Shown here: positions 6,099-63,957 of the stretch, piece by piece
How positions within the stretch are numbered: position 1 is the stretch's first letter
How the letters are laid out: each line of letters starts with the position of its first letter
Translations under genes and position numbers: made by a program
Notes under the pieces: model-generated
The model's input: only the letters and a program-made list of their open reading frames with translations
Databases searched by the model: none
Told to the model about the DNA's origin: nothing
Origin: Bilabrum cf. latius
Lineage: Eukaryota
Direction: 5' to 3'
Assembly (NCBI GenBank): GCA_965178125.1
Contig: OZ237767.1
Location: 124,001 to 188,000, forward strand
Length of the DNA stretch: 64,000 nucleotides

Positions 6099-9000
6099 AT
6101 GGCAGATGTCCAATCAGCATCTTTCGTGTCTCCCAAAAACCAGCTGTTTGACCGAGAAAAGCCGAGGTGAGTGCCACGGTGACACACGCAGTTGAGCGTG
6201 AATCCTTCGCATGGCTTCTAGGTTGGCTCCATTACTTTGGAATACGTATACAATACGTATGATCTGTACTTTCACGAGGGCACACGCGATATTTTACGAG
6301 TGCATGATGAGGGATTGGTCCCAGCCAATCACCTGACATTTTCTGTTTTGACCTTTCCCGCAGCAACAGCACCATCACGGTGAAGGTAGAAGGAGCAAGC
6401 GCTGTTCGCCTCGCAAGCTCTACGAAAGAAGACGGGAAGTCCAAGCGGAAGGCCGCCGGGTGTTGGGGCACTTGGTGGTGCCTCGTGCTTGGAGCAGGTG
6501 TGCTCGCGCTCGCGCTCGCGCTCGGAATCACCCTCTTCTTCGTGCTGGGCCAGGGAGCAGATGAAGACGCACCCATAGGCGACACCTCCGCTGCACCGCT
6601 GCAAGGTGCATCTGGAGGAGCTGGCCTCGACGGGGTCCGCAACGTCTCAGATGCCTTCAGCCAGTGCGCCGGTCACGGCCAACGGTCGCTCGTCGACGCC
6701 GCCTTGGACGACCAGTACCAGGGCTTCACGGTGGCGTCGTTCGGATTCAATGCCACGGGCATCGACACATCCACGCGGTGCAACGTGAGCCAGGCGATCG
6801 CCGAGGGGGCCCGCGCCCGCCTGCCCGCGCAAGGCGATGGCGGGCCGGGCCGGGACATCTTCGTGAGCCTGCTGGGCGGAGAGGGACACGGCGGGTCGGG
6901 GGTAGGTCCCACGGGTCCCCTCGTGTACACGCCCATGGTGGCCACGATGGCCGTGATGGTCTCGAGCGAGAGCGATGCGGTGGCCGTGGTGGACACGCTC
7001 GGGTCCCAGGCAGCTGGCCGGGAGCTGGTGCTGGGGCCCATCGAGCAGGCCCCGGGGCTGGGCGTCTCGGCTAGCAATGCCACTGCGGTGCCTCCTCCAC
7101 CAGCGGTGATGGAAGCGCTGCGAGCCGCCGATGAGGACGAGGAGGCTGATGATGCCGTGGGTGGCGGCGGGCAGGGCACGGCCACCCCCGGGGCGGGTCC
7201 CGTGCTGCTGGACCTGTCCCCGCTGAGGAGGCAGCAGGCCAGCGCGGCTGCTGCCGGGACTCCGCTGCCGTCAGCATCGGGTACGCCCACGCCATCGACA
7301 ACTCCTTCCACGTCTCCGGTAAGGCCTGCATTTCTTGACCGGATCTGACTGACTCTCTCTGATCGGTAGGACCTCCAGTATCGCCCAGCATAGCCTGCAA
7401 GTGCTCGTTCTCATCTATATTCCTCGCAGACTCCGAGCAACAGCCCCACGCCCAGCGTCACGGCCAGCCCCAGCAACAGCCCCACGCCCAGCGTCACGCC
7501 CAGCGTCACGCCCAGCCCCAGCAACAGCCCCACGCCCAGCGTCACGTCCAGCCCCAGCAACAGCCCCACGCCCAGCGTCACGGCCAGCCCCAGCAACAGC
7601 CCCACGCCCAGCGTCACGCCCAGCGTCACGGCCAGCCCCAGCAACAGCCCCACGCCCAGCGTCACGTCCAGCCCCAGCAACAGCCCCACGCCCAGCGTCA
7701 CGGCCAGCCCCAGCAACAGCCCCACGCCCAGCGTCACGTCCAGCCCCAGCAACAGCCCCACGCCCAGCATCACGCCCAGCGTCACGGCCAGCCCCAGCAA
7801 CAGCCCCACGCCCAGCGTCACGGCCAGCCCCACGCCCAGCATCACGGCCAGCCCCAGCAACAGCCCCACGCCCAGCATCACGGCCAGCCCCAGCAACAGC
7901 CCTACTCCAGTAAGAACTAGAACAATATCGTTGCTGTGTCGCTGGTAGCTCGCTTAGCGACTCACCACGTATCGAGTTGCAGTTCCGCAGGTCCACCCTC
8001 TGTGTATTGCGTCCTTCGTGTTGCCCTCTGTACCGTCGCAGTCCATCACACCATCCGGCACCCCCTCACCCTCGGCGACCCCCCAGTCGTGGGGCTACCT
8101 CGAGCACACGTCCAACCCAGGCCGGTTCATCCCGTACGAGTTCACGCCCATGGGAGACGAGATGTTCTTCCGGGCGACCGACATCGATTCCAACTCCGAG
8201 ACGGGTCTGTACTCGTGGGACGAATCGAGTGGCATCCAGCTGCGGGTGGATGTTGCCACGGGGGGTAGCATCCCTCAGTAGTTTACTCCCTGGGGTCAGG
8301 ACAGGCTGGTCTACTGGTCTACCGTGCAGGAGGCTGGGCAGTCGGTGATGCGAATTGTGGTGTACAACACTACCAGCGACACAGTGTACGTCGTGCCAGG
8401 CACCAACGGCGTCGGTGAGGACATGCAGGCATCCGGCACACGCATGCTGCTGGACGAGGCAGGCGGGCGCATGCTCTTCTTCGGCAAGCCCGAGGGATGG
8501 ACGGACTCGGGTGCCGTCCACCGCTGGTACTACGGAGCGTACTTCCTGTACTCCGACATGACAGTGCAGCGGGTGTTTGACATGAGCCCCTACATGATTT
8601 CTAATTCATGGCGGGATGAAGACGGCTTCATGACCATGTTCCAGGGGGACTGCTACGTGGCGCTGTCGGGGGAGACGCAGTCCGTGGTGAGGGTCAAGGC
8701 CGGCACGCACGATGTAGACGTGATATACGACTCGGGGAGGACCAGGAGCAACCTGATCATGTTCCGGCCATTGTTCGAGTTCAACAACAAGCTGTACATG
8801 GTGGACTGGAGCAACACAGACTACAAGATCCACACGTACACTGGGAACGGGACACCGACGCGGCTCTTCCCACCTTCCGGTGGTGCGGCTGATGCCCTGC
8901 GAACCATGTCCAAGCCCACCGTGCACGACGGCAAGGTGTACTTCATGGGTTCCGATGGGTCCACCTGGAACTTGTACACGTATGACGGGGCCACGACGGT

Positions 9001-14317: not shown

Positions 14318-14509
14318 AGTGAAGCGGTGAAGGGTGGGGGGGGGGGGGGGGGGGGACAGTGAAATGCATGCAGCTGGAAGGATGGCAATATAGCGGCTCA
14401 TAAATTGCGCGGCGCCGTCCTACGGAGACTCGGTAGCGGAACAACTAGACTACAGGCAGCGGCAAGCTTCGCACAACACAATCACTGTACGAGTTTCCAC
14501 AGTCACAGC

Positions 14510-15804
14510 ATGCGATTGATTATTCAGAAGGATCCTAGCGAAGTAGGCTCATGGGTGGCGAATTACATCGCTGAGCGGATCAGGAAATTCAACCCCACAG
14601 CTGCGAATCCATTTGTGCTGGGCCTGCCGACCGGATCTTCACCCCTTCCGGTTTACAAGAGGCTGATTGAACTCCACAAGGCAGGTCAAGTTAGCTTTAA
14701 ACATGTTTGTACCATCAACATGGACGAGTATGTCGGGCTGCCCCGTGACCATCCGTGAGCTTCAATTCCTGGAATAGTTGACATTTTGCTCGCCTAGTCG
14801 CAATGCTGGTTCACCAAGCCCTGAAAATGCATGCATGATTGTAATTTTAATGCATCGCAGCGAATCCTATCACTCTTTCATGTGGAAGAACTTCCTCAAG
14901 CACATTGACATCGATCCTCGGAATGCCCACATCTTGAACGGCAATGCGGAGGATTTGCAGGCCGAATGCGACGAGTACGAGCGCACGATCGCTCGTCTGG
15001 GTGGTATTGAGCTGTTTCTTGGCGGAATCGGCCAGGATGGCCACATCGCATTCTGCGAGCCAGGCTCGTCGCTCTCAAGCCGCACTCGGGTGAAGACGCT
15101 CGCATACGACACGATCGTCGCGAACAGCAGGTTCTTCGACGACGATCTCGAGAAAGTGCCTAAAATGGCTCTTACGGTTGGAGTTGGCACCGTCATGGAT
15201 TCTCGAGAGGTCATGGTCATCGTCACGGGTGAGCATCCATAGCCAAAAGAGTCGCGAGGCGACTGCCGCTGCCAAATGCCATTACATGCCTCATGGTTCT
15301 CTCGCGCACGTCAATACAAACTACCGCTGTAATTGATTATTCTCGCAGGCGTGCGCAAGGCCCTTGCCCTGCATCACGTGGTGGAGCAGGGAGTGTCTCA
15401 TATGTGGACGGCGTCGATGCTGCAGATGCACCCTCGCGCATGCATCGTGAGCGACGAAGACGCAACGGCCGAGCTGAAGGTCAAGACGTACCACTACTTC
15501 AAGCAGCTGCAGGAGACCCAGGCCCAGCTCATGCACACTTCCCAGGGTGGTGCCATGGCAGGGTACGAGGGCGGGGTGGTGAGCGGGGCGGGATTCGGGA
15601 TGGCGAGTCTGCTCGACCCAGCCATGCTTGGGGCGGCAGCTGCCGCGGGTGGGAGGCTGTCCGCCACCCAGCTGCAGGATGCAAGCAAGAGACTGGCGGC
15701 TGCCGCTGCAGCCCGCCAGGAGGCCGAGGCGGATGCTCGCGCCAAAGCCAGGGCTGCTTCCACGTCTCCCTCTGGGGCAGGGGCAGGGGCGGCCAGGGGC
15801 GGTG

Positions 15805-15835
<31 letters not shown>

Positions 15836-16019
15836 GTCGTCATCATCGGTAGCAGCCGTGGCCGGCACTGAGATGCCGGAAGAAGAGCCCGTGGTATTCG
15901 CCGGTGGTGTGGCTGGAGACAAGAGGGCGAGGACGGAGCAGGACGGCGCTGGCGGGGCGGCCAAGCCAGTGGCGAGCAAGGAGGAAACTGCGCCCGCCGC
16001 CAAGAAGGCGCGCACGTGA
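14510..16019 (+). CDS. GNPDA: Glucosamine-6-phosphate deaminase with a low-complexity C-terminal extension. Exons 14510-14754, 14861-15228, 15349-16019; no internal TAG
   Basis: MRLIIQ...[89 protein letters not shown]. Two in-phase GTGAGC...CGCAG introns. Confidence 0.95.
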
Positions 16020-16210
16020 TGGGTTGCAAGTCTGGATTCATTCATGTAATTGCTTGATTGCACTGACGCTGCGAATATGCGGAGTCTTGGTCGCACCGTG
16101 TGGCCAGTGGCGTGACGAGCAGAAGCTCGCAGTCCCAACCTCGCGGTGCTTGTGACATAGCTACACCAAGCTAGCCACATTCGCAAGTATTTGTACCCAA
16201 TTGTATCACC

Positions 16211-19200
16211 ATGGATCCTCCTAGCAACATGACGCCAGCGGAAATGGAAGAGGCCCGGCGCTTTGCAGCCATTGCAGCCAGAGCTGAACGCAGAGCTGCG
16301 GAGAGAGCGAAAGCCAGGGGATCGAAGCAAGGCACACCCGCCACAGCATCGACAAACGCAATATCTGGAACTAGTTCTGCTCGCGGAGTCAGTAACTTTG
16401 GCACTGGGTCACTTAGCGCAGGATATGCCCACACATCCAGTGGCCGCCAACAGTCCACCGCTGGCGGCAGCGTTTCAGCGGTTCAGAGGCTGATGAAAAC
16501 TATGCGAAGTGATTCTAGTAGTAGACGATAGAATGTGCAGCAGCCGAAGTCAACTGCTGGAAGCCAGGGTAGGGGTGGCACTGGCCTGTACTTGGATTCG
16601 CTGCCGGCCGACCAGAGAGCAAAGGAGCTTGCCTTGGCGAAAGAGCGGTATCTTGGAAGTCGAAATGGATAGGAAGAGAAGGATGCAGCCGCTGCGTTGG
16701 CGGAAGGCAGCCGGAAGCGCAAGCGCAGCGGACCGAACCGGCAGTCGCTTCGATTCGAGTGGGATGCAGGCGATGACACATCTGCCGCTGCGGGCGGAGC
16801 AGGCAAAGCAGCCTTACAGGACAGCAGCAGGTCTGCATAGTTTCGATCCCTGCAGGATCACCAGGAGCGCGATCGGTGGGGCATGTCGAGCAATCATCAC
16901 GACCACGGGCGCGGCGCCTCCGGGTCGGGAGCGAGCAGCGGGCACCGAAGGGGGGCACAAGGGGACAGGGGCCAGGACAGGGACTGGAGAAGAGACCCAT
17001 ATGGTGACTCTCGCGGGAGCAGCGGCCGCGACAGCCGGAGAGATGACAGGCGAGACGATAGGCGAGACGATAGGCGGGGGGGACGCGATTGGGGCCGGGA
17101 CAGGGGTGGGCGCGACGATCGGAAGGACTGGCGAGGCGGCAGCGGGAATCGATCCCGGGAGCCCCGCGGTGCCAACCAGGCGGTCGTGGCCGCCTCCCTT
17201 GCAGCCAGCACCCCCCTATTCGGCCGGGGTGCCATGGGGGGTATGGACCCCAGCTGGGGGGTGTCTCGGCAGGGCCGCGATGCTTCCCAGGCACGCATAG
17301 AGGCGAGGCGGAAAGAGGCAGCGAAGGTCGAGGAACGTTCGCTGAAGGCGTTGGAGGGCGAGAGACAGGCGAAGCGGAGGAGAGTCGAGCAGGAGGACCG
17401 GGAGAAGAACACGAAGATGGCGAATGAGCGCATGAAGAACGGTGGTGGTGACCAGTCCGCGGCTGCGATGAGCGGCGGCGGCGGCGGTGATGCCGGACTT
17501 GTGGGCGGTCGATTCCGAATCTTGCGACCAGAGGAGATCGCCTAGAGTGCGGGCCAGCAGCCCAGCACGAGCTTGGGAGGCGACAATGGGGCTGGTGGTG
17601 ACACGGGCAGCAGCAGCTCTGGTGGCAGTGCAGGTGATGCGGAGGCATCCAAGCCAACAGCGCAGGAGCCAGGGCAGGCAGCAAGCGCTGCGATGAAATT
17701 AGGCGGCAAGGGCGGTGCTGCAGTTGCTGACGATGCAGCTGCGATCGTTGCTGTTGATGTTCCTAGGCAGGAGCAGGACGAAGACGAAGATGAAGATGAG
17801 GATGATCTTGCGCTTTTGTCGGCACGGCAGTCTCAGGTGGTGAGGAAGAGGAGGAGAAAAGCCATCGATACGCGGCACTGGACGGAGAAGAAGAGAGAGG
17901 AGATGACGGCCAGGGACTGGCGGATCATGCGGGAGGACTACGACATCAGAGTGCGCGGCGCCGGCGGGCTATCGGTTCCGCTTCCGCTCCGCGAGTGGAC
18001 GGAGGGCGGGCTGGACGAAGGCATCATGCAGGCCATCAGCGAAAAGGGCTACGAGAAGCCTAGCGCCATCCAGAGGCAGGCCATCCCCATCGGGCTGGAG
18101 GGCAGGGATCTGGTTGGAGTGGCTGAAACAGGCAGTGGCAAGACGGCGGCCTTTGTGATCCCCATGCTGCAGAGGCTGGCGAAGGCGCCCAAGGAGGTGC
18201 GGGAGGCATGCGCGACGGACGGGCCTCTTGCCCTGATCCTCGCACCGGTGAGAGAGCTGGCCCAGCAGATCTTCGCGGAGGCCCAGGAGCTGGCGAAGCA
18301 CAATGGGCTGCGCGCTGCATGCGTGGTGGGCGGGATTGACATACACGAGCAGGCGTCCGTGCTGTCAAAGGGGGTGGAGGTGATTGTCGCTGCGCCAGGA
18401 AGACTGCTGGAGTGCATCAACAAGAGCTTCGTGGTGTTCAACCAGTGCAGGTACATCGTTCTGGACGAAGCGGACAAGATGATCGATCTCGGGTTCGGGC
18501 CAGAGGTGGAGCAGATCATGGATATGATGGCCGGTGATGGGGCAGTAGATGGTGCCGCCGCTGGGACTGCGGCAGCAACGGGAGCAGTCTCGGCCAAGAC
18601 AGGACAGGCGCCGATGCAAGGGACCCAATCGTCAGCACCGTCTAGTGCAGCAGGAGCCGCATCAGCAAATCAGGACGAGGATTCCCAGCCCGCGTGGCTC
18701 AACACCCCACCGCACCTGCGCCGCACGACCATCATGTTCAGTGCGACCATGCCGCCCGCCGTCGAAAAATTGGCCAGATCCTACATGCGGTAGCCTGTGT
18801 CAGTCAGGATCGGGGACCAGGACAGCGGGAAGAACCAGAGGATCAAGCAGACGGTCACGAAGGCGCCCTTTGGCAGGAGGTCTGGCAAGCTGGCCGAGGC
18901 GTTGCGAAGCTGTCCTCGCCCAGTGATCGTCTTCGTCAACATGAAGAAGACGGCGGATCTGCTTGCCAGGGAGCTTGAGGGCCACGGACACGCGGTGGTT
19001 TGTCTACACGGTGGCAAGACGCAGGTGGAACGCGAGCTCGCTTTGGCCGCCTTCAAGAGCGGAGAGGTGGACGTGATGGTGGCCACGGATGTGGCAGCAA
19101 GGGGGCTGGACATCCCCGGCGTGCAGTACGTCATCAACTACGAGCTGCCCAAGCTCTTCGACAGCTACACCCATAGGATCGGCCGGACGGCGCGCGCAGG

Positions 19201-19354
19201 CACAGAAGGTGCAGCGCTGTCGTTCTGGTCTGACGACGACGCCGACGTGTTGCCTCAGCTTAAGGCCCATCTGGAAGGGACGGGGCAGAAGGTGCCTCCG
19301 GATCTAGAGAAGGCAGCGCAAGGCGCAGAAAAGGGCGGTGCCGGGGGGAAGTGA
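16211..19354 (+). CDS. DDX23: DEAD-box splicing helicase DDX23/PRP28, single exon, ~1047 aa; five in-frame TAGs (16529, 16670, 16838, 17543, 18791)
   Basis: PRP28-specific motifs KERYLG, RFEWDAGDDTS and RHWTEKKREEMTARDWRIMREDYDI. Q-motif PSAIQRQAIP, AETGSGKT, DEAD, SAT, ARGLD, HRIGRTAR. All fragments are in one frame. Ends in TGA. Confidence 0.93.
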
Positions 19355-19708: not shown

Positions 19709-20749
19709 TCAATTCGATCTCTTTGGGAGCCCTCTGTGCTGATCGCTTCCGTTTCGTGCCTATTGCAACGGAGGCCGCCCCATCCCCCTCCTTTTCCTTT
19801 TCCTTTTCCTCCTCCTCTCCTCCTCCTCCTCCAACTGCTGCTGCTGCTGCTGCTGCCTGGACGACTGGTCCCCCGGTTGTGACCTCTGCTTGCGCTTGTG
19901 CCTGGGCCTTGATTTCGACTCAGAGTTATGATGGGTCCCGATTACGGTCAGCACATCCCGGCCGAGAGCCACGTCGACCAACCCAGCTCTGCCCCTCCCC
20001 CTGCCCCTGCCCCTGCCCCTGCCCATGCCCATGCCCATGCCCATGCCGGGCCCGTCTTCACCTGCCGCTTCCTGCATGGACTCGCGGGCCGCTTGCATCG
20101 CCGCTCGGCGTGGTCGTCTGCCTGGTGACGGTTCGCTCGCTGATGCTGAAGAGGGCTGAAAGGAGGGGGTGGCCGATGAAGCAGCAGATGCTGATGCTGA
20201 TGACGATGACGATGATGACGGTAAGGACGGCGCCTCGTAGGCTCGTCCGCTCGCCTCTTGCGTCTTGTGGATGTATTCCAGCACGGCCTTGCTCGGGTTC
20301 ATGACCTTTGAGAATACGACCACTCCGTCGAACACGTCTTGAACGTTGGCCGATCCCGACGATGCTCGCCTGCCTCCGGGAGCTCGCCCGTGGGCAGCAT
20401 CATCGTATGGGGACCAGCCAGCAGGGGCGCTTAGCTACAATGTTAGCAATGGCTGCTTGCATGGAAGGACCTTTCCTTCCAGAACGATGCACCGGCCTTG
20501 CTCCTACCCGCTGCCACCTCCAGAATCCAATGGCGGCAACGCCAAGGTTATTTCTGGAGCTGAGGTATCCATTTTTCGTATAGTGCCTATTTTCCCACCA
20601 GACAAAGATGATAATACCCCGGGCAGAACCATTAGGTACCTTCCTTTTCTCCTGGTGCCTTTTCTCAAAACGTCAGCTCCAGAGAGAGATCCAAAAAGAG
20701 GCCCAGCGGACAATTCAACAGGAGCTCGGCCAAGCTAGGAGCTATCCAT
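19709..20749 (-). CDS. RHL1: RHL1-like DNA topoisomerase VI accessory subunit, ~346 aa; four in-frame TAGs (20735, 20504, 20435, 19760). The C-terminal end is uncertain: an alternative acidic frame runs to ~19479
   Basis: DVLRKGTRRKGRYLMVLPGVLSSLSGGKIGTIRKMDT...GRCIVLEGKVLPCKQPLLTL*L...QDVFDGVVVFS resembles the plant RHL1 core as I recall it (K.RFLFSFPGLLAP..GGKIG.L..L.T...G..VYPKNRYLTLQF...DYFDNMIVFS). Confidence 0.75.
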
Positions 20750-20919
20750 TATATGCGCAATTAAAACGAGAGTTTAAATGACAATTCACAGGTGGGAGAT
20801 GCAGGCGAATTCACCCTGTTTTCAAACCGCGGAACCAAGTTCCCGCTGCTGCGCGCGGCGCCGGCTATCGGCAGAGGTGAGCGCGAAACCAGACTGCGCA
20901 AATACTGTGCTAAACTCGT

Positions 20920-23022
20920 ATGCAAGTAACAAGTTTCGGCATGAAACCTGCAAATGACTCTTTGTATGAGATCATGACAGAAAGATCTGTTGATATTAGG
21001 CCCGATGTGGAAGAGGACACACGCGGTACCTGGCTTGATATTCCCGATCCACCGGCTGTTGGCCCGTCGAGCAGCGTCCCAGAGCTTAAAGAGTTCATTT
21101 TAGAGAACATAAGTATTGGAATAGACGATGATTCTGATTCTAGCGAAGGCGAATCGGGACAGATCGCGTCGTACACCTCACGGCCTGCATCACGTCTTGC
21201 TGAGCACTCCTCAAATCGTGATGGAAGCTTGGCACAAAACGCGCTCCAATTAGGTGCAAAAGGCCCTTCATACACGTTGAGGAGGATAGCAAGCGCTCCT
21301 AAGCTGAAAAAGTATGCTAGACGAGTTTCACAGGTATTCGGAAAAGCAGCGTACGTTAATAGTCCATCTGCAAAAGAAGCAGCACCGGGGCGTGGAAACA
21401 GGTCAGCAGCCAACGAGAGCGGAGCATTAACAACCAGTGGAGCTGGCTGGATGAACCCTGCCGCGCTTCTTGCTCTGGAAGGTGAAACAGATTCGCCGCC
21501 CAGCTCGCGTGCCCGGTCACCAGCTGCTGTTGGCGGCAGTGGCAGAGCCTCGCGATTCAGTTTTTCCCGGTCGAGCGGACAAGGTATGGCTGAGCACGCA
21601 GAGTCCACGCTTTTCCAGTATAGTGCGGATTCAGCCAGTCCATCTGCCACACCACATGCGGCCAAGCATCCAGGCGGGGGAAACAGACCAGGCCCACAGC
21701 GGCCGAGCCGAAGCCGAAGGCACCCCACAACCACACTGCTAGACGCAGCAGCAGCCAACAATAGAAAAATACAGTAGGCAAAACAACAAGAGTTGGCGAG
21801 GTGGGCATAGTGTCCCGAGGAGGTTTGGATGGCGCTCGCTCCGCCGGTCGTGAGGAAGCAACTGCTCGCACAGGCTGCAGAGCAACCAGGTGGGGGCAAT
21901 GTGATACCGGCCTCAAACACTCGTTCCGAGCCTACAAACAGCCATGAAGAGTAGAAAACGTTGGAGAAATGGGCGCGTAAGGTTCGGAAGGAGCCCTCAG
22001 ATATGGTGGCTCCAGACGGTTCCCCCGTCACATCGCACTCGTCACATATGCCGTCCGGAGCAACTTCAGAGCGGTATTCAATCGAAACCCTCGCCAGGCT
22101 TTCCCAGGGAACTATAACCCGAATTGGAGACAGGTGCGCCCCTGCAGCACAGCGCCAAGCCGAAGCCAGCGCATTGGCAGCTGTTGCGACTGGCAAGGAG
22201 CTGGAGCCCTGGGTAGTGCGAGCCACTGCCCTGGGACGGCTGTCCACACTTATGCACGCCCGACCAGCTCTTGCATGCCAAGAAGTGCAGGAGCTGAACT
22301 GGCATAAGCCGGCCGTGAAGATGAGCAGCGATGAACCTGTCGCCGGGGCAGGTGCCCCCATCGCCCGACCAAGCGCATCTAAGGGTTGGCGGGAGGTGCT
22401 CCACGTGTTCAAAACATGCCTCGATGCAATCGGAGCTCGTGATGCTGCGGAACCAGCGGCGCTGCGCATTTTACCCCTGCTCGCTTGCAGGCCGCAGACG
22501 GACCGACTGGCGCTGTGCCAGGGCAGGTGCGTCCAGCACATCCTGTCGATCGCCGCGGGTCGATGCCACTCCGAGACCATGTGCGTGCTGGTTGAAGTCC
22601 TGCACCTGCTGACTTGCGGCACCGACTATGCCTCACGGGTCGCCCGATCGGAGCTGATGGAAGCAGGTGGGATCGAGCAACTCGCGGGCTGGCTAGGTGC
22701 CAGCACCATGCCCCCTACCAGGCTCGTGCTCCGAGAGATTCTAGAGATTCTGGCCGCATTTGCGGAGGGAAGCCGACCGGGAGACGGGGTGCGAGATAAG
22801 CTTGAAGCAGCCAGACTGCCGCATGTGCTGCACAGCATCCATGCGGCTGTAAGCATGACGGATGTTGAGGTCAAGGCGATGCAGAGGGTTTTGTTGGCAG
22901 TTGCGGGCGGTGTAAAGAAGGAGGAGCAGTGGAGGAGAGAAGCAACAGCGAGATAGGATATTCGACGCAGGCAAATCGAGCTGCGGGTCCATAGATCAAA
23001 TGAAGCCGGCAACGGGCGCTGA
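20920..23022 (+). CDS. Hypothetical protein, ~700 aa, with a disordered N-terminal half and a helical (ARM-like) C-terminal domain; four in-frame TAGs (21775, 21808, 21952, 22954)
   Basis: ORFs 20920-21777 and 21961-22956 share a frame and are separated only by TAGs. RSELMEAGGIEQLAGWL is ARM-like. Ends in TGA. Confidence 0.7.
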
Positions 23023-23316
23023 ATTAGTCTCGCTATTGGTCTTGCTCCCGGCTGTACCGGTGACACGTCCATTGCGCAAAAAGAATACAATATCAAATTT
23101 CCACTTCAGAATTCGATCGTAGCGATATATGTAACCCACAGCTATGAGTGTGGGCCTCCGGACCTGAGCGCTTGCCGAAAGGCAACTCAAAAACCGGAAC
23201 TTCAAACCGCCACATCAGCGTGTGCGGTGTGGTGTGGTGGACTCAATTGCGTCCTTGGCACGAGCATAAGCGACACATAACAAAGAGTTACTCGCAATAC
23301 GTAATTATAATTCTGC

Positions 23317-26109
23317 ATGGGAGGAACAAATGATGATGTGTAGACGGATGCTGGAGGCACGGAAAAGGAGCCCGGCGCGGAGACACCAGTCTGGCAGAAA
23401 GCCTTGAGCGTAGTCATTGGGACAATTATCAGCTCTATAATTTATCTTATCTTCATGCTAACTGTTCTGTATCAGAGCACCACTTCCGGGGTCCCTGTAA
23501 ATCCCAACGAGTGGAAGGTCGAGGTACAGGGCTGGTCATGGATTGTCGGACTGTGCATTTTCCTGGCTCTATTTGTATTTCCATTGTCGTTGCTTGGCGT
23601 TCAATCGAAATCCTCCAGTGGCTGGACACCGTTGGTTAATGAGTACTCAGGGTGGCTGTACGCGTTCATCGGGGTTCTACTAGTGATCCAGCTGGCGACC
23701 ATTTACTACGCTTACTTGCGACCAGAGCTACGGAAGGTGCGAAAATTGGACGCGCGATTCAGGTATGGTCGATGCTTCAACGGGGCGTGCGGCTGCCACC
23801 GAGGGTTCTGGCGAAGAGACGGGAGAGGCATCCGGAGGCGGGGGGTCACCGGCGGCAAGCGAGCAGCCGGACTCGGAGAGGCGGCTTCACGAGGTGATTG
23901 GCAGTCTGCAACTTCTTCAGGAAGGGATACCGTGCCTGGGTCTTAGAAGTCGAGTGCGTCGAAAGGGCCGCCAAGTATTCCTCCTGTAGCAGCAACGACG
24001 AACTCACGTGACGCGAGCACAGCCGTTCCGTCGGTCCATGATGCAGTCGGATCAAGGCGATTCTTGATCGTAGGAAGAACGGACCAATCGCCTACATCAG
24101 CAATAGATAACTTGCCTTAGGTCTAGACCTCATCAGACGTATCGAGCCCACCGGGTGCCCCATGCGAGGACCCATCGGACCAGGATGCCCGAAGTGCCGG
24201 GGGTGGTGCTCAGGAAAGTCGCCCGTCGAGGCGCCTGTCCTCGCAGTCTCGGCTGCTGCTCAAGTCCAGTCGACATCTCTTTCCACCGACTAGTGGATCG
24301 CGATTGAATAAGGATGCATGCGAGGGCGAGGAAACCACACAGAACAAGTGCGCCGGTCCGAACCGGACAGAGACCTCCCCCCGCAGCAGCAGCAGGCAAC
24401 TGCGGCGGCAGGCCAGGTCAGCTAGCAACGTGTTGGTCGTGCTCACTGCAGCAAGCATTAGCGATGCCCGGGTACAGACATCTAAACTCCATAAGTGTCA
24501 CGAGGCTGCGCCCACCTCCATGCCTGCCCTCAAGTCCCCCGATTCAAGCTGTGGGAGAGGCATCAACGTGTCACTGTCCCCCGCCGCCGATGAGATCGCC
24601 GCAGGGCCCGGGCGCGCTCAAAATGATACCGCGGCAGTGCCACCTGCCAGTGGCAACTTGCATGATAGTGATGCGCATTCCACACACAGAACCAGTGGTG
24701 ATGCTGCTTCCGATTCCGATTCCGAGGACGAGGATCTGCCCGACGAAGGTGGGGGCAGCAGCGTTGAATCCAGCAACCACTCGTCGCCGATGGGCAGCTC
24801 GACCCGAGAAGATGTGCAACGCGACTCAGTGCCGGTCTTTCAGCTGCAACGAACTGAAAACCCGTTGCTAGCTCAAGCTGGTCCCGGTACCAAGGCGAGT
24901 CTTGAGTGCAAAGAGTTCCCACCAAAGGCGAGCGAGCGGTTGCAGTACATATCAAAGCAACCTCGCAAGAGCATGTTTGCTCTCAACGGCGGCAGCTACC
25001 TCGCATTGGTAGGCGACCCATCTACCCGAAGAGTTGATATCTACCGTGAAGCAGACGCCGGCGCACCGCCCGTCGCGCCGTGCTGCCCCAACCCAGGCGG
25101 AGTATCCGTTTCAGAAGTGCCACTTTCGCAAGGCGGCAACCGCACCGATATCCAGTCGGGCAAGCGGAAGCCCCCTCGCTGGGTGGAGCTGAGGTATGCG
25201 GACGGCAGCACCCCTTGCATGGTGTGCCCGTGCAGCCTGGCGCTCTGGAGGAACTGGCTCATGATCGGCATTGCCAGTCTGGAGCTGCTGCAGCTTACTT
25301 CGCTGGGGCTCAACTGTGCACCTGAGCTGCTTGACAGCCTGGGCGAGACATTACCACCTGAAGTGCTAGAGTTGCCCCGGAAAGCGGCCGACGTGTTCTT
25401 CCAGCTGGGAGGGGGTGGAGACGGCGATCCAACGTTCGTGCCGTTCGTTGGTAGCGTGACCTTTTCTGGAATGTACGTGATCATCTCCGGTATGTTCATC
25501 GCACTTGACCTAGGCCTTGATTCGTTCGTGGCCCCGCTGCTCTTCTCCCTGTTTGCTGGCGGATTCTACGTGACAGTGACTGCCACCCTACTGTTTGTGA
25601 TCGCGAATACGGAGCGGAGAGCGGAGGCAATTGCGTGCGCCGTGTGCCTGCTCTACTACAGCAGCACGGCGGTGTTCATGTCCATCTACAGGGGTGATGG
25701 CGGTGCGATGGGGTCTCACGTCGCGGCTCAGGTGTCAACCATCCCGCTGTTTCTTGCCGTTGAGCGTGTGCTGAAGGGGGTGTTGTCGTCGGCATACGTG
25801 CTGATTGAAGATGATCTTGCTCGCTCCGCTGCCGTTGTGGCCATTCTGACCTTGCACCTTGGAGTGATGGTCTCGCAGCGGCCAGTATCCAAAGCCTCCA
25901 TGTCCGCGATCCGCATCGGAACCGGCATGGTCGGATGGTGGGCAGCGGTCGTTGGTCTAGTCAGCGTGGTGGGCTAGGGCTCAATCAGTGCCATGTTTCT
26001 GGCTGGCACGCTGGTTGCGGGTTGGATGGTTGTGGTGCTGAGTATCGCAGTGTGGCTGGGGGTGAGCTGCGGCCACACGAGGGACGTTTTGTTGCCTCTG
26101 CCACTGTGA
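23317..26109 (+). CDS. Uncharacterised multi-pass membrane protein, paralog 1 (~930 aa; N-terminal TM bundle, long disordered linker, C-terminal TM bundle); five in-frame TAGs; 3' end uncertain
   Basis: Single frame joined across TAGs at 23341, 23944, 24118, 24124 and 25975. Both TM blocks are homologous to the minus-strand gene at 26429-30271. Confidence 0.75.
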
Positions 26110-29400: not shown

Positions 29401-30271
29401 TCACACCTTCAGCTGCGCTACGACTCGCCAACGCGACTGCGTCTTGCCCGCTCTCCTGTGCTGGTATGTCGCCGCGTCCGGTGCTGTTTGCAGTGAAATC
29501 ATCACACTTCTGAGGTATGCTACCAGTCGCACGGGTGCTGACTCGACTTGTCACACCGTCTCGCCTCCAAAAGCCCCGGTTACACGGGCACAGGGATGCA
29601 GGGCACCTGCCATACCGAAACCGAGCATCCAACTGCAGCACCAGCCCTAGGTCCTTCCGCAGATAAGCGTAGTAAATCGTCGCTAGCTGCACCAAAAAGA
29701 TGCAGAATACAAACGCGTACAAAGCAACCACCCAATCGCCCTCTAGTGCGGAGTCGCCAGTCTGCGCCAGGGTGTGATTCGCTTGCGAGCCCATGGTGCG
29801 GTTTCCGGCGTGATCAGCCCCAGCCGCCGCGTCCGAGTCGATGATTGCTGGCGCTGCAGGGCTTGTGAGCAATAAAATCGGCGATGCGAGCAGAACCAAA
29901 AAGACAGCTAGAGCCGCAAGCCATGAGTTGCACGAGAGCTCCTCCTGCCACTGATTCGTGTCCACCGGCCAGCCCTGCCAAATGCTTTGTGCCAATACCG
30001 CTAGCATGAATAATTGGTATATCACTGCTGATATCACTGTACCAATCGCCAGACCAAGCGACTGTCCCATAATACTCAGACACGAGCTCGTTGGGTCGAG
30101 GTCCTGCTAGCCAGCATCAACACCCCTCCGGGATACACCCCGGGGGAGAGACGCACATGCTGAACTAGCGCTGGCGTCAATTCTTTCGCTGCAATTGGTA
30201 TTTTCATGTCTATGGGTCTCCAGATGCGCAGCGTCACACAGTGCATCATCTTTTGGTGTTGCTTGCTACAT
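26429..30271 (-). CDS. Uncharacterised multi-pass membrane protein, paralog 2 (~1280 aa); eight in-frame TAGs; termini approximate
   Basis: Five supplied minus-strand ORFs (30070, 29002, 28657, 28087, 26737) are all in one frame and all end in TAG. Shares QLATIYYAYLR..LDARFRYGRC and PPRWVELRYADGSTPC.VCPCSLALWRNWLMIGIA with paralog 1. Confidence 0.75.
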
Positions 30272-30779
30272 TGCAAGTCAGCACTCAGTTAGGCTACTGC
30301 TACTAACAGCTGCAGTGTATCTAAGTGTTGAAATAACACTGCACGAAGCTGCGCAACGCGCCTCGAGTTTTACCAACAACAGAATCCTCAAACCAATGAA
30401 CACGTCACCAAGGCGCGATATGCTTCGCAGCGTCCACCACGTACCAGCGTGCTAAGGCAGCGATATCACCACGCACAAACACTTCTATATCTCAATGTTT
30501 ATGTGGAAGCGTCCAAAGTCGCGATTTCTGCGGAACACTGCTAAAGAGGAGCCTGATAAACGGACGGAGAGTTGCTGTTGGAACAAATCTTCTTCTTCGA
30601 AATTTGACATGGTCGCAAAATCCTTCATTCCCATGAGCATGTGTAGAGACATGTCGGACGTGTATCAGTGGCATGTCTTAAGATGGCAATGCATCACTGC
30701 CATGCCTAGCCGCCCATGGGTATACCCCGACGAAACCGTTGCGCACACCACCCGATTTGATATGTGACGCCAAAAATCC

Positions 30780-31017
30780 CCCCAATCTGGTTCACCTGTA
30801 CGCCTTCCTCTCAAGCAGCCCCAATCTGGTTCACCTGTACGCCTTCCTCTCGAGCAGCCCCAATCTGGTTCACCTGTACGCCTTCCTCTCAAGCAGCCCC
30901 AATCTGGTTCACCTGTACGCCTTCCTCTCAAGCAGCCCCAATCTGGTTCACCTGTACGCCTTCCTCTCAAGCAGCCCCAATCTGGTTCACCTGTACGCCT
31001 TCCTCTCGAGCAGCCCC
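30780..31017. repeat. 39-bp tandem repeat, six copies, covering the last codons and stop of the SLC35A gene
   Basis: ccccaatctggttcacctgtacgccttcctctc(a/g)agcag x6. Confidence 0.95.
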
Positions 31018-32497: not shown

Positions 32498-32716
32498 TGA
32501 GACTTAGAAGCGCTATTTGCTGCGCGATACTCAGTGAATAGCTTTGAACGGATCTGGATTTCTTGAACACCGGAACCGCCTTCAAGTTAGCAAAAATAGA
32601 GTATCTGTTCCCATTCATCAGGCAAGTGCGCGATACATTAACGTCCCTTACCCGGTAATATCAATTTTTTTAGCTCAAAATATCCTGACTGATCGGTTAA
32701 CTGCCCATACATTGTT

Positions 32717-39175: not shown

Positions 39176-39419
39176 CTATTTTCATGGAGACGGTCGTTGA
39201 AGAATCCTGGGATAGCTTCCGAGACTAGGCTTTGCCATGCCTGCTTATCCACTCTGATTCACACCCGCAGTCACTTACAAATCCTTGGGCTGTGTCCAGC
39301 CCAGGGGTCCTGCCGTTTGATCTACATTAGGCTACAGTTATCTAAGGTCTCAAGCAGTCCTGGTCTCGGGTGCCAAAATCGTTAACAGCGTTAACCAGTT
39401 AAGCCCTGATAACGCGATT

Positions 39420-53915: not shown

Positions 53916-56592
53916 ATGGGAGCATGTGGATCTAGTCTTATTTCAGGTGCCGACGCATCCGGCAAATATTTTGATCGAGATTCATCCACTGAGGCCAAAT
54001 CGCGCAGTGATATAGATCAAAGCACTTATGAGACTGTTGGGGCCTCGAGCATTTTTGTCACTCCTGTAAGCTATATGCATGCGTTCAAGTGATTTACCAT
54101 CTACTTTTTTGGATGGTAAAAGACGTGACAAATTCTAGACACTCATGCTGTACTTACTTGCAACGCAGGGTACCACGTAGGGAGCTGCCGGTGGTTCAGG
54201 CAGCCGAGGAGATGCGGGTGGCGACGCGGAGCGTACGCTACCTCTTGCAAGGACTAAAGTTCCAGACAGCCCAACGAAACTCCGATTGAATCTGTGGTAG
54301 TCCATGAAAGACACGGCAAGACAAGGCAGCAATAGTACGACCCCACAATGGGAGCAAGATGTCCCCGAGAATTTGTACGACGAGAATGCTGACCAAGGAA
54401 TCATGTGGGCTGACAGTCCAAGGGCTAGTCGACAAGATATTTATAGAAGCGATTCAAGAGGGTCTACAGTATGTAGCGGTGACGTATCCGCGAGACTGTC
54501 GGAATCCCAAGTCGGAAAGCAAGATGCTGCTGCTCTCAGCACAGCTCAGCCCTTCTCTGCCAGGTCGGGGGGCGTATCGGAACCGGCCGCAGCAACTTTC
54601 GAGGCCGAAACAGACGAGTCTTCATCTCAAGGGGGTTCCAATAGCGATGACCACTCGCTTCCAGGGCACGCGCTGCCTGCCAGTCCCAGGCCGAACGAGG
54701 AACATCACGACGCTGTGAGCACCGTACGCGTCGTTGCTGGGGATTCCGAGCACTCTGCAACAGGGAATGCACGTACGAAGAGCTAGAGCGCAGGAAACGG
54801 TCATGCTTTGCACGATCAAGAGCAGCCAGTTGCGCGTGCAAGTGGGCACGTGCAAGCATCCGCAGCAGCCTCGACATCGTCCTCAGCTGGTAGCGGGACT
54901 GCCACTAGCCCACCAGGTGAAGAACAAAGGAAAGAAATGGATGGTGGTATTCAAGTCATCAGCGGCAGTAGCTCGGACGATGAAGAGCTCGATGGCGCCG
55001 TGAATCTCGTCGCCGCGAGCGAGAGCGGGGAAGCCCAGGTGGCGACCCGCGTGCCATTTTCCCCCGTGCAGCCCAGCGTGGAGATCCCACAGCACAGCCA
55101 GCGCGCCAGGGAATACCTTGCACATGGATCTACCCCCGAAACAGCGCACGACTCGGTAAGGAGAGATGGTTCGGCTGGAGCGGCGAGCGGTTCTCACGCG
55201 CATGGGGACGGCCACACTCATATTGCTTTGGGCTCTAGGGGAGGCCCTCACGACATGATGGGCGGTTTTCGGGTGTCGCGGAGAGGCGATTAGGATCATT
55301 GGGGTCCACACGGGGAGATGTTTGAGGCGGGGAGCGCGGAAGTGGCCGCTGCTTCCAAGGCGGACGACGATTCGATCCTCATCGACGCTGGTGCATCCCT
55401 GGTCGCCCTCAAGTCCATCGCCCGACAGCTTGACACGACTATGAAGCTAGCCGACCTTGTTCCCGTCAGGACCATCGGGGTCGGCACGTTCGGGCGGGTG
55501 AGGATGGTGCGGGACAAGAGGACGGGCAAGCTGTACGCTCTCAAGACGCTGCAGAAAGCCAGGATTGTGCGCCTCAAGCAGCAGCGCAACGTCTGCTACG
55601 AGAAGGCGGTGCTTGCTTCCATCCGCCACCCTTTCTTGATCCAGTTGCAGGCCGCTTTCCAGGACGAGGAGTGCATGTACCTGGTGCTGGAGCTGGTGCA
55701 AGGCGGAGACTTTGTGGGGAGACAGGCAGAAGTGGTTGTGTTCGAGGAAGCATCCGCTCGTTTCTACGCTGCCTGCGTGCTGAGCGGGCTGGCCCATCTG
55801 CACGAGAGGAGGATCTTGTACAGGGACCTAAAGGTGAGATGAGTTCTGCGGCTGCCCGTTCCTTCGTGTGCCGACCGTATCACGCCTCCTCCACCCCACG
55901 CTGCTCCCCCTGGATGCCTCCGTACCGCCAACTCTAACGCACATGTTTTGTTGCCTGTACCCTTGCACTATCATCATCCAATCGCTTTGGGACCCCCGCA
56001 GCCTGACAACCTGCTTGTGGACACTACTGGCTATGTGAGGCTGTGCGATTTCGGCTTCGCAAAGTACGTTCCGGCCGGCTCCATGACGCGAACGCTGTGC
56101 GGGACCCCCGATTTCCTGGCCCCAGAGTGCTTGCTGAAGAGCGGGCACCATGAGGGTGCCGATTACTGGGCCCTCGGCGTGCTCATCTACGAGATGCTGT
56201 CTGGTGACAGCCCGTTCGCCTCGGATGACGGTGACCAGGTGGAGACCTTCAAGCGGATTCTGAACTGCCAACGCACTCTCGCGTTTCCCTTGGAGATGCG
56301 GAGTGAACAGCGTGCCGCTGTGAAGCTGCTCACTGGGCTGCTGCAAAAGTCGATGCCGGCTCGTCTCGGCTGCCGCCGTGCAGGCGTGTCTGAGATCCTG
56401 TACCACGAGTGGTTTTCGGCGATCGACTTTGGCAAGTTGCATCGCAGGGAGATTAAGGCACCATGGGTGCCGAAGCTCGAGTCCGAGGACGACACGCAGT
56501 TTTTTGATGACTTCTCTTGTGAAGAGGAGGAGGAGGACGAGGAGGAGCGGCTCAAGCCAGGGACAGACATGGCCTGGTGCAAAGATTTTTAA
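53916..56592 (+). CDS. PKA-catalytic-like AGC kinase A with MGACGS acylation motif and long disordered N-terminus. Exons 53916-54065, 54169-55833, 56002-56592; four in-frame TAGs
   Basis: IGVGTFGRV, YALK, YRDLK|PDNLL, DFGFAK, TLCGTPDFLAPE, DYWALGVLIYEM, APWVPKL, WCKDF-TAA. Confidence 0.9.
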
Positions 56593-61541: not shown

Positions 61542-63957
61542 ATGGGGGCTTGTGGATCGAAAAATGTGCAGCAGCCCGACTTCGATGATCCCTCGGCATG
61601 CCAACCAGTGAGGTACGGGTACGCGGTGGAGATGCCCCCTGCTAAGTCCGCTGTGACTATCAAGTCCGACTATATTGCCTTTCTGACGTCACATGCCCTC
61701 CGCCTATCAAGCAGGGAGACCAGGCACAAGCAGATGAGAATGGTAGTGGCGTCGTGACCCGCGTAGGTACTGGGCTGCCCACAGACCATGTGCCGCGCCG
61801 TCCCATACTGAAACAAGAATGTTGCCAAGACCAATCCAACAATAAGGATGAAGAGGTGGAAAGGTCCGCTGAAGTGCCCACAATCACCCGGTCTCGCACG
61901 CTGTGGGGCAATATGCGAAGGCTCTCTCTGCATGAGCTTCAATTGCCAGAGGACGACCTAATGGCATCAGATGCTACGAATACACATACGCAGACTTCAA
62001 TGGCTACTCCTTTTTCATATACTGGGAAATTTGACACAAAGCTAAGCGTTTCAGGCGCGCAGAGGGGGTTCACGTACTCGGATGCTGCAGGCGCCCTGGA
62101 CCTCATGGACAGTTAGCCTGGCACAGACACAGCTCCCTAGGATAAACCCAGTGAGACAATTTACCATCGCATCTTGAGCGCTCCCGTGAAATTTGTTTGC
62201 GGGCCTTGCAAGGTCAGGGTTAGGGTGAGCATTCCTCGATTCGTTCAAACTCGTGCTATGTTGTTCCCATCCCCTTGCCATGAAAGCCTATCATATTGTG
62301 CAGTACCTCCCCCCGTTGATGACAACCTCAATGACGACGAAGAAGAGCACGAACAAAGTGGCCACGATTCAAGTGACGCTATAGATGTAGTCAGTTCTAG
62401 TAGCGATAGCAGCAGCGTCGGGCTTCAATCAGAAGAACTACAAGAATTGAATGTGAGCGATGGATCGGCTTCTGATCAGCAGGACGGCTCAATTCCAACA
62501 ATCCACGAATCCTGGAGTGATCTAGACCGGCCTGCTTAGGTGGAGCACGGCCACCTTTCCAGGGATACCCAAGGCAATGACGCGCACGAAATGTGCGCAA
62601 CAGCGACATTGTCGGCTGATACTGGAGGCGGCTTGGCAATGCCGGCTCATATGTCTGTAGATAGGGGGCCTCGACTGGAACCAGTTCAAGAGAGCACCTT
62701 TGTTCCGGTTTCGCGGAGGCCGCCGACGTGGGCGCCCGCAACCACAAGGGTGCGCTCTCGTCCCCTGCCCCCACCACCTTCCGTCCTGCCGAGCTTCTCA
62801 CTGCTGGAGCTCAAGTCGATCACCCGACAGCTTGACATGACCATGCAGCTGGCTGATCTGGTACCCGTGAGGACCATCGGGGTGGGCACGTTCGGGCGGG
62901 TGAGGATGGTGCGGGACAGGAGGACGGGCAAGCTGTACGCTCTCAAGACGCTGCGGAAAGCCACGGTCGTTCGCTTGCGGCAGCAGCGCAACGTCTGCTA
63001 CGAGAAGGCGGTGCTTGCCGCCATCCGTCACCCGTTCCTAATCCAACTGCAGGCCGCTTTCCAAGACGAGGAGTGCATGTACCTGGTGCTGGAGCTGGTG
63101 CAAGGCATCTAGATGTCCAGAGTGATCGGGACAGATGAGTTTCATTCCGAATCCCAGGCTCGATTTCTCGGTGCCCAGATGCTCTGCGGGCTTGCGCACC
63201 TGCACCTCCGCCGGGTCCTATACCGCGGGCTCGAGGTAAGAGAGCAAGACTGAATCCTGTCTGCAATCGTGTGGAAAATGCCTATTATTACGCATCACTC
63301 CCTGCTCCCCCTGCCCATGCCTCCTGCCTCCTCTCCTGCTCGCAGCCAGCAAACGCAGTCATCGGACCCGATGGATATCTGAACATGCGAAACTTCATGC
63401 AGTCGAAGCCGCTTCCGGCAGGGGCAAAGACCTGGACCTTCTGTGGCAATCCGGATCGAATGCCGCCGGAGTGTTTGCTTGGCCTCGGGCACAACGAAGG
63501 CGCCGATTACTGGGCGCTCGGCGTGCTCATCTATGAGATGATCTCCGGAAAGAACCCGTTCGCATCGGACGACAGCGATCCCATGAAAGTCTCCCACAAC
63601 ATCATTTTCGAGGATGTGCTCGCTTCAAGAGGTCCGCTTCCCGCCCCACTTGCGGTATCCTCACCTGCTGCGCTGGACCTGGTGCGCGGACTGCTGCGAA
63701 AGTCCCAGTCAGACCGTCTCGGCTGCCACAGTGAGGGAGCAGTCGAGATCCTGTAGCACGAGTGGTTCTCGGCGATCGACTTCGGCAAGCTGCTCCGCAA
63801 GGAGATAGAGGCGCCCTGGGTGCCTAAGCTAGAGTCCGAGGACGATGGCGCACAAGTTTTCGAAGAGCAAGTCGTATACTCGGATGAAGAGGAGGGGGAC
63901 GAGGTAGAGTAGGAGATGTGTACTGGTGAATCCATGGAGTGGTGCAGACACTTTTGA
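61542..63957 (+). CDS. PKA-like pseudokinase C with MGACGS motif. Exons 61542-61607, 61715-62150, 62304-63235, 63346-63957; six in-frame TAGs
   Basis: The N-lobe is nearly identical to kinase A. The catalytic loop reads YRGLE|PAN, DFG is replaced by NFM, and the activation segment reads CGNPDRMPPE. The conserved tail MEWCRHF-TGA lies beyond the TAGs at 63754 and 63910. Confidence 0.85.

Follow-up and report, generated by a model that had tools for sequence, protein, structure and literature searches.

Introduction

Nuclear codes in which UAG alone has become a sense codon are few. In the published cases, UAG alone is read as glutamine in Iotanema spirale and in the ciliates Hartmannula sinica, Trochilia petrani and Protocruzia tuzeti, and as leucine in a rhizarian (exLh) and in uncultured phyllopharyngean ciliates (PMC5304391, PMC11687900). 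Scotinosphaera, the only green alga reported with a change of UAG alone, reads UAG as serine and keeps UAA and UGA as stops (PMC8271138, PMC11687900). One ciliate reads UAG as glutamate, and its UAA has changed too (PMC11687900). Different meanings for UAA and UAG were unknown in nuclear codes before 2017 and are still confined to few lineages (PMC5304391, PMC11687900), and the stop-to-sense change of UAG most often leads to glutamine (PMC2984419, PMC8271138). Here we analyse a 64,000-nucleotide stretch of Bilabrum cf. latius DNA (contig OZ237767.1, positions 124,001 to 188,000; hereafter the window), in which TAG is a sense codon, and we ask what one TAG, codon 105 of an RHL1-like gene on the minus strand, says about the amino acid.

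RHL1 is described as an accessory subunit of eukaryotic topoisomerase VI, with one conserved central domain of mostly beta strands that resembles the Ctf8/Dcc1 barrel, and as occurring in plants, SAR groups and some opisthokonts (PMC9665070, PMC11302465). Models of BIN4/RHL1 are reported to fold like the Ctf8/Dcc1 heterodimer barrel (PMC9665070).

TAG is a sense codon and TAA and TGA are stops

Across the window TAG codes for an amino acid, while TAA and TGA stay stops. With TAG read through, the longest frames contain 2160, 1639, 1596, 1282, 1118 and 1095 codons. The longest standard-code frames contain 886, 843, 841, 688, 616 and 614 codons, and the first three of these overlap one another within a single low-complexity repeat region at ~42-45 kb. 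Freeing TAA instead of TAG brings nearly no change (891, 844, 841 and so on). The frames of 1000-2160 codons carry 5-14 TAGs each and no internal TAA or TGA, and frames this long are not attainable by chance, because the off-frame density of TAA and TGA together is ~2 per 100 codons.

Codons were tallied over 18 long frames (14,965 codons). These frames were picked for lacking TAA and TGA, so the internal zeros for both codons are there by construction. TAG is about as common in frame (88 times, ~6 codons per 1000) as in the other two frames (110 and 105). For TGA there are 14 in-frame cases, always at the end of the open reading frame (ORF), and 216 and 279 in the other two; the corresponding counts for TAA are 4, again all at ORF ends, and 57 and 56. 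In the list of frame ends, 15 of the 18 are TGA and 3 are TAA. Two independent checks on single genes support this reading. In the gene of the DDX23/PRP28-type helicase, a TAG separates two domains whose match to human DDX23 (E 7e-121) continues in a single frame. Three tandem kinase paralogues share a WC(K/R)xF terminus, which is closed by TAA in one and by TGA in two (Table 1). Two more TAGs lie between conserved blocks of the RHL1-like core.

With TAG decoded as an amino acid and termination left to TAA and TGA, ribosomes would pass through all the TAGs that interrupt the long genes. Decoding would be carried out by a tRNA with a CUA anticodon, and the release factor would have lost recognition of UAG; no eRF1 gene is among the Pfam-scanned frames of the window.

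The codons that follow TAG show a bias of their own. A proline codon (CCN) stands directly after TAG in 13 of 88 cases, and T is the rarest following base (7/88). With low-complexity sequence masked, proline follows 15.4% of 65 TAGs, compared with 3-7% for eight amino acids examined in the same way. The identity of the amino acid offers no explanation for this bias, which may reflect an effect of nucleotide context on decoding, or chance among many comparisons.

An RHL1-family gene with four TAG codons

The RHL1-like frame carries TAGs at residues 5, 82, 105 and 330 and has no internal TAA or TGA, and a TAA at 20776-20774 provides an in-frame stop upstream of its ATG. When the sequence was re-read, the TAG that the original prediction had singled out was found as described, in the context KQPLLTL*LS. 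Under the standard code this gene would fall into pieces 4, 76, 22 and 224 residues long. The TAG at codon 82 falls in a column that is a gap in 26 of 36 RHL1 homologues. The TAG at codon 330 may be read through or may be the true end of the protein. The TAG at codon 105 is an ordinary sense codon in an intact RHL1-family gene.

The family is only distantly recognizable. Pfam gave no family at E <= 1 for the RHL1-like protein, and a single-query word-indexed protein search found nothing. HMMER, run with residues 20-170 (TAG as X) against 1.84 billion representative proteins, returned 36 proteins at E <= 1e-3, with a best value of 4.9e-9 and none at <= 1e-10. The matches share the pattern G.DI.RKG..RK.(K/R)YL..LPG.L....GGKIG.L...DT..P.L...FP, which continues through a hairpin ending in (K/N/R).(Y/F)LTL(Q) to (E/K)D.F...(V/I).FS. 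A 19-member profile of these matches recovered 14 proteins in a word-indexed search of the matching length range; those with names come from the brown algae Discosporangium, Choristocarpus, Hapterophycus and Undaria (by gene label) and from the land plant Turnera subulata. Aligned by BLASTP with TAG as X, the protein matches the Turnera subulata sequence P0038 (E 2e-12, 30% identity, 155 aligned positions, X opposite Q) and the homologue P0003 (E 2e-16, 44% identity). All residues that are invariant in the family alignment (D7, L20, P24, G36 and P46) are kept in the core. On these sequence comparisons, the homology to the matched family is real but distant.

We take the Turnera subulata homologue to be RHL1, as it fits Arabidopsis RHL1; its database name is "hypothetical protein", and none of the tools gave the name RHL1. 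The gene is filed as a putative RHL1-family member under a provisional name. The GGKIG and D.FD..VVFS blocks that the original prediction placed on either side of the TAG both align with the Turnera subulata homologue, the second of them as D.F...V.FS. The plant motif that it had given, KNRYLTLQFS, is KNRYLSLQFS in this land-plant sequence, and the Q opposite the TAG is present as stated. With plant RHL1 (ROOT HAIRLESS 1 / HYP7) the window protein shares the central beta core, the sequence blocks and a charged low-complexity tail. Its N-terminal lead is much shorter than that of the land-plant homologue (the core starts at residue 24 rather than 62), and it differs from plant RHL1 by 29 residues inserted after the hairpin and before the last strand.

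An AlphaFold2 model built on the 19-row alignment (mean pLDDT 74.4, pTM 0.64) consists of a mostly beta core and one C-terminal helix, with strands at 19-22, 37-39, 47-52, 67-84 and 119-131. In this model the codon-105 TAG lies two residues past the DSSP-assigned strand that stops at query residue 84. Foldseek found no match to the model in the PDB at E <= 0.001. The best of the weak matches (E 0.02-0.2) are barrels of the Ctf8/Dcc1 fold class. Among them are 6o9l_T from the human holo-PIC entry (E 0.022), 8clk_F from the TFIIIC tauA complex, chains of Ctf18-1-8 and Dcc1-Ctf8-Ctf18C (5okc_H, 5msm_E and 5oki_D; E 0.14-0.2, prob 0.85-0.95) and TFIIF RAP30/74 (1f3u_A). When the PDB was searched by sequence with the profile of the family, nothing but chance matches of low complexity came up, and the search was set aside. 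A search of the ESM Atlas with a TAG-free 76-residue stretch of the protein gave no usable match, and Pfam scans of 79 frames in the window found no topoisomerase VI domain.

The residues opposite codon 105

For the column opposite the TAG, 48 homologues were aligned, 36 of which cover both the hairpin and the last block. Across these 36 rows the column has tyrosine 12 times, glutamine 10 times, asparagine and lysine three times each, arginine twice, and V, W, H, T, M and S once each. The 12 tyrosine rows share the motif GRFFTLY(A/G)DK and cluster tightly; those with names are from brown algae, and the word-based search over-sampled the cluster. For the tree, with the TAG columns left out, we dropped P0012 and P0019, which were judged misaligned, and eight short brown-algal fragments. 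In the 26 rows that remain, glutamine (10) is followed by tyrosine (4), asparagine (3), lysine (2) and arginine (2), and V, H, T, M and S occur once each. The other 18 rows on the side of the query hold Q 10, K 2 and R 2, plus N, V, S and M. The land-plant sequence also stands on that side, with weak support. P0009, the sister of P0003, has glutamine.

The hmmbuild profile emits glutamine at 0.13-0.16 in this column, lysine at 0.11-0.12, glutamate at 0.084, serine at 0.075-0.079, leucine at 0.033-0.035, tyrosine at 0.015-0.046 and tryptophan at 0.004. The single-site odds for glutamine are ~40:1 over tryptophan, 4-5 over leucine, 3-10 over tyrosine and ~2 over serine, and less than 2 over glutamate (1.6-1.9:1), lysine and arginine. 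The column is a variable polar position with glutamine as its plurality residue. The original prediction had called it a conserved glutamine position, and this wording does not hold, as tyrosine, asparagine, lysine, arginine, serine, valine, histidine, threonine and methionine occur there too. Glutamine is the commonest residue, as had been expected, but in a column that varies. The site had also been put forward as the best single-site clue to the code. It is the only TAG in the window that can be aligned to a family of more than three sequences and so the best clue available, but the clue is weak. As for its choice of glutamine rather than leucine, tyrosine, glutamate or tryptophan, the odds bear this out for leucine, tyrosine and tryptophan, though tyrosine is the brown-algal residue, and they leave glutamate close behind; serine was not among the rivals listed. 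In sum, the claim that codon 105 shows TAG to be glutamine is partly supported. The column agrees with glutamine but does not establish it.

Other TAG sites that can be aligned

Four further TAGs can be placed opposite a residue: one in the helicase core, two in the third kinase copy and one in the repeat-built protein at 7349-9277. Together with codon 105, the five sites face a glutamine plurality (10/26), R/R/K, D/D, Y/Q and E. A crude BLOSUM62 sum over four of them (RHL1, DDX23 and the two kinase sites; 12 residues tried) ranks glutamine first at 5.9 half-bits, ahead of glutamate (3.3), lysine (2.7), arginine (2.6), serine (-1.7), tyrosine (-3.3), leucine (-9.2) and tryptophan (-9.4). These sums correspond to odds for glutamine of 2.4:1 over glutamate, ~14 over serine, ~24 over tyrosine and ~185 over leucine. 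In the repeat-built protein, two weaker internal repeats place glycine and leucine opposite the TAG.

In the third kinase copy YRDLK is replaced by YRGLE and DFG by NFM, and this copy holds the only TAGs within a kinase domain of the trio; the first copy has five TAGs, all upstream of its kinase domain. The third copy is probably a pseudokinase, or else a gene in decay. The loss of its catalytic motifs makes it poor evidence on the meaning of TAG.

Several other sources of residues were tried and rejected. In the pair of membrane-protein paralogues at 23311-26109 and 26429-30277, 13 TAGs fall in poorly aligned parts and are uninformative (they face G, S, H, T, A, C, P, T, F or gaps). In an all-against-all BLASTP of 893 frame pieces, the letters aligned to TAG beyond the kinase and membrane paralogues come from antisense or non-coding frames. 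PDB alignments placed no residue opposite a TAG for the kinase-like frame at 46415-48847, the WD40 protein, the TMEM260 homologue or the frame at 20914-23022. A context model of the +/-3 neighbours of TAG ranked V, R, L, P and S above Q, and its first calibration was circular. On held-out sites it ranked true glutamine first in just 57% of cases; with low-complexity sequence masked, true glutamine came first in 10% and true serine in 28%. TAG-neighbour statistics were therefore rejected, for lack of power, as a basis for naming the amino acid.

Which amino acid TAG encodes

Glutamine is the most likely meaning of TAG, at somewhat better than an even chance. It is the commonest residue in the RHL1 column, one of the two paralogue residues at one kinase TAG, first in the four-site sum, and the published reading in four UAG-only lineages (Iotanema, Hartmannula, Trochilia and Protocruzia). 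A tRNA-Gln whose anticodon changed from CUG to CUA would supply it, and TAG codons would arise from CAG by a C-to-T change. A number of observations weigh against glutamine or weaken the case for it. At codon 105 the profile gives Q just 0.13-0.16, the nearest homologue by identity (P0003) has valine, and tyrosine is fixed in all brown-algal homologues; the query sits in an unresolved polytomy of 19 rows, and the split that separates it from the tyrosine-bearing side is supported only by 61/84. Arginine stands opposite the helicase TAG in human DDX23 and in a Prp28 chain (5dtu_A), and lysine in yeast PRP28; the QGIXM site of the kinase faces aspartate in both paralogues, and the repeat-protein TAG faces glutamate in the best internal repeat (score 36). 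When this repeat site is added to the sum by hand (BLOSUM62 Q-E 2, E-E 5), glutamate draws level with glutamine. Within +/-2 residues of TAG glutamine is not enriched (1.07x expectation, compared with 2.24 for glutamine beside glutamine), and none of the poly-Gln runs in the translations examined has a TAG inside it. The decoder itself is unseen, as ARAGORN found no tRNA gene and Rfam no family in the window.

The aspartate and repeat sites are also what speaks for glutamate, which a tRNA-Glu with a CUA anticodon would insert at TAGs derived from GAG by one G-to-T change. AGC kinases often have glutamate at the aspartate position of QGGD. The RHL1 and four-site odds favour glutamine over glutamate only narrowly, and the repeat site cancels the four-site preference. 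A nuclear code with UAG as glutamate is on record for one ciliate (PMC11687900). In that single known case, however, UAA changed as well, and UAA is a stop in the window. Glutamate is absent from the RHL1 column (0/26 rows), the other kinase TAG stands opposite tyrosine and glutamine, and glutamate is not enriched beside TAG (0.88x expectation). Moreover, the kinase copy that offers the aspartate has lost its catalytic motifs and its residues may be unconstrained, and the weaker repeat matches disagree with the best one. We regard glutamate as unlikely. Serine, the reported reading in the green-algal order Scotinosphaerales, is in our view more doubtful still; a tRNA-Ser with a CUA anticodon would insert it. 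Seryl-tRNA synthetase does not read the anticodon, so the anticodon of tRNA-Ser changes easily. The stop pattern of Scotinosphaera, with UAG alone changed and TAA and TGA as stops, is that of the window (PMC8271138, PMC11687900). The RHL1-like protein falls, with weak support, on the tree side of the land-plant sequence, and the window encodes repeat proteins rich in serine, proline and threonine. Serine occurs in the RHL1 column (P0036), where the profile prefers glutamine by only ~2:1, and the masked neighbours of 65 TAGs fit a serine context best, although the estimated odds of ~1.8:1 barely separate serine from glutamine. Repeat proteins of this composition are associated with green algae. 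On the other side, only 1 of 26 RHL1 rows has serine and 10 have glutamine; serine is opposite none of the DDX23, kinase and repeat TAGs; and the four-site sum favours glutamine by ~14:1. A green-algal origin of the window is not established, and membership in Scotinosphaerales still less. The long serine-rich repeats that lack TAG are uninformative here, because 268 of their 269 serine codons are AGC.

Tyrosine or leucine, taken together, are improbable; leucine is a published meaning of UAG, and tyrosine of UAA and UAG jointly. For tyrosine there are the brown-algal rows (12/12) and the closest kinase paralogue, whose TAC differs from the TAG of the third copy only at the third position, amid identical flanking codons. 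For leucine there are the rhizarian and uncultured ciliates in which UAG is reported as leucine and UAA as a stop (PMC5304391, PMC11687900), a membrane-segment TAG that faces phenylalanine in the paralogue, and the LLTLXLS context, which would accept leucine. Yet leucine is found in 0/26 RHL1 rows and tyrosine in 0/18 on the side of the query, the RHL1 profile prefers glutamine to both, and neither residue fits the DDX23 site or the aspartate site of the kinase, so that the sum favours glutamine by ~24:1 over tyrosine and ~185:1 over leucine. Least probable of all, and to a degree that we consider slight, is that TAG is not translated as a regular sense codon, whether because the RHL1-like gene is a pseudogene, because U-to-C editing takes TAG out of the mRNA, or because TAG is ambiguous and sometimes terminates. 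TAG is indeed rare in the best-conserved parts, with 1 in 511 helicase-core residues and none in the exons of the glucosamine-6-phosphate isomerase, in the two intact kinase copies or in the conserved part of the sugar transporter. Two TAGs near C-termini, at codon 330 of the RHL1-like gene and 10 codons past the Pfam match of the transporter, are possibly real stops. Decay is nevertheless excluded by the long frames, which hold 5-14 TAGs and no TAA or TGA against an off-frame density of ~2 per 100 codons, and the RHL1 core retains every invariant residue of its family. We know of no editing of nuclear messages at such a scale. The probability that remains after these readings falls to lysine and other residues.

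Other features of the window

The window is ~58% G+C, eukaryote-like and intron-poor, and looks like nuclear DNA of a eukaryote. Besides the RHL1-like gene it holds genes for the DDX23/PRP28 helicase, a TMEM260-type mannosyltransferase (PDB 9rql, E 8e-22), a nucleotide-sugar transporter, a WD40 protein, three tandem AGC-type kinases and an intron-split glucosamine-6-phosphate isomerase. Positions are collected in Table 1.

Table 1 Features of the 64-kb window, with positions numbered from its first nucleotide
Feature	Position	Strand	Details
RHL1-like coding sequence	20749 (ATG 20749-20747) to 19709 (TGA 19711-19709)	minus	346 codons; no intron seen; four in-frame TAGs
RHL1-like core domain	20300..20680	minus	~aa 24-150; contains GGKIG and DVFDGVVVFS blocks; common to RHL1-family proteins
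TAG codon 105 (under study)	20435..20437	minus	context KQPLLTLXLS; end of long beta hairpin, core domain
TAG codon 82	20504..20506	minus	variable loop of RHL1-like core domain
TAG codon 5	20735..20737	minus	N-terminal tail of RHL1-like protein
TAG codon 330	19760..19762	minus	basic tail of RHL1-like protein; TGA 16 codons later
TAG in DDX23/PRP28-type DEAD-box gene 16067-19354	18791..18793	plus	helicase core, between DEAD and Helicase_C domains
TAG in third tandem AGC-type kinase	63110..63112	plus	QGIXM; both paralogues QGGD(F/L)
TAG in third tandem AGC-type kinase	63754..63756	plus	ILXHEWF; paralogue 1 TAC (Tyr), paralogue 2 CAA (Gln)
TAG in repeat-built protein 7349-9277	8279..8281	plus	IPQXFTPWG; best-matching internal repeat IPYEFTPMG
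TAA as stop	56590..56592	plus	kinase C-terminus WCKDF; paralogues stop there with TGA 59292-59294 and 63955-63957
AGC-type kinases, tandem	54070-56592, 57810-59294, 61646-63957	plus	one intron each after YRDLK (in frame in middle copy)
Ser/Pro/Thr-rich repeat proteins	41360-44716, 7349-9277	plus	unit about SPSFSNSPTPSVTA
Glucosamine-6-phosphate isomerase	14363-16019	plus	three pieces in different frames; Pfam PF01182 on middle piece, E 3e-9
Nucleotide-sugar transporter	30987-32503	minus	at least 2 exons; Pfam PF04142, profile positions 7-96 and 95-312
Multi-pass membrane-protein paralogues, convergent	23311-26109 (+), 26429-30277 (-)		55% identity over ~376 residues; PPRWVELRYADGSTPC motif
Tandem DNA repeats, probably non-coding satellite	1-957	plus	repeated peptides in several frames, ~61-residue units; window start
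Tandem DNA repeats, probably non-coding satellite	30682-31285	plus	13-residue units NLVHLYAFLSSSP; beside transporter gene

The two TAGs in the frames of the isomerase lie in apparent introns rather than in exons. After the single TAG of the transporter, 67 low-complexity codons follow up to a TGA, and this TAG could be a case of readthrough or a true stop. The convergent membrane-protein paralogues match no Pfam family. With the conserved membrane domain of the plus-strand copy, the ESM Atlas returned unnamed eukaryotic clusters, in which the few labelled members are Preaxostyla (score 0.92, recognition below threshold). A link to Preaxostyla and oxymonads was considered and dropped, as the oxymonad paper gives TAA and TAG together as glutamine.

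Across the repeats rich in serine, proline and threonine, several frames on both strands are open, and in the 772-codon repeat part nearly every serine codon is AGC, as noted above. On either side of the repeat-protein gene at 41360-44716, the segments 39948-40557 and 44798-45252 match each other in inverted orientation (63-74% translated identity over 43-71 residues) and may be an inverted duplication flanking that gene. The final 48 codons of the 2160-codon frame (38900-39200, plus strand) have a 69% identical copy ~7 kb downstream (45900-46250).

Discussion

The strong conclusion of this study is the one that concerns the whole code, namely that TAG is sense and that TAA and TGA are stops, and it is broader than what was found at codon 105. 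The RHL1 site illustrates the code change fairly but does not prove glutamine. Our tentative reading of its origin, which we hold to be possible rather than probable, is that a lineage without a known code change, G+C-rich, intron-poor and probably on the green side, freed UAG alone independently and gave it to glutamine. That TAGs avoid the most conserved genes suggests, on this reading, a young or inefficient reassignment, and the twofold excess of proline codons directly after TAG might be a sign that decoding depends on context. A new lineage with glutamine would differ from the one green alga with a UAG-only change, which reads serine. We found no report in the open-access literature of a UAG-only glutamine code in a green alga or in another RHL1-bearing lineage.

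Each new UAG-only case tests whether UAG and UAA can be uncoupled, and by which tRNA. For annotation the code is of direct consequence: with the standard code, most long genes of this genome would be fragmented, and the choice among glutamine, glutamate and serine alters every predicted protein that contains a TAG.

Compared with the described codes, the window shares the split of the glutamine codes of Iotanema and the ciliates, with UAG as sense and UAA and UGA as stops. NCBI table 15 has the same shape as such a UAG-only glutamine code. The organisms differ, however: those lineages are an anaerobic flagellate and ciliates, whereas the window holds a gene of the RHL1 family, of which no homologue is reported in excavates (PMC9665070). 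UAA is the main stop in those lineages, whereas the frames of the window mostly end in TGA. The code in which UAA and UAG are both glutamine (NCBI table 6), found in many ciliates, Dasycladales, Cladophorales, Trentepohliales, hexamitid diplomonads and Streblomastix, likewise turns UAG from stop to sense. In contrast to that code, the window has no internal TAA in 14,965 codons, although CAA occurs 168 times and the other two frames have 56-57 TAA each, and TAA ends a kinase at its conserved terminus. The leucine codes of the rhizarian exLh and the phyllopharyngean ciliates reassign UAG alone, as the window does, but the TAGs of the window face polar or charged residues, and leucine scores above tryptophan only. 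Scotinosphaerales have the same single freed stop and belong to the green lineage, where the RHL1-like protein of the window loosely groups. Unlike what their serine code would lead one to expect, the TAGs of the window face glutamine, arginine or lysine, aspartate, tyrosine or glutamine, and glutamate, with serine in 1 of 26 rows of one column.

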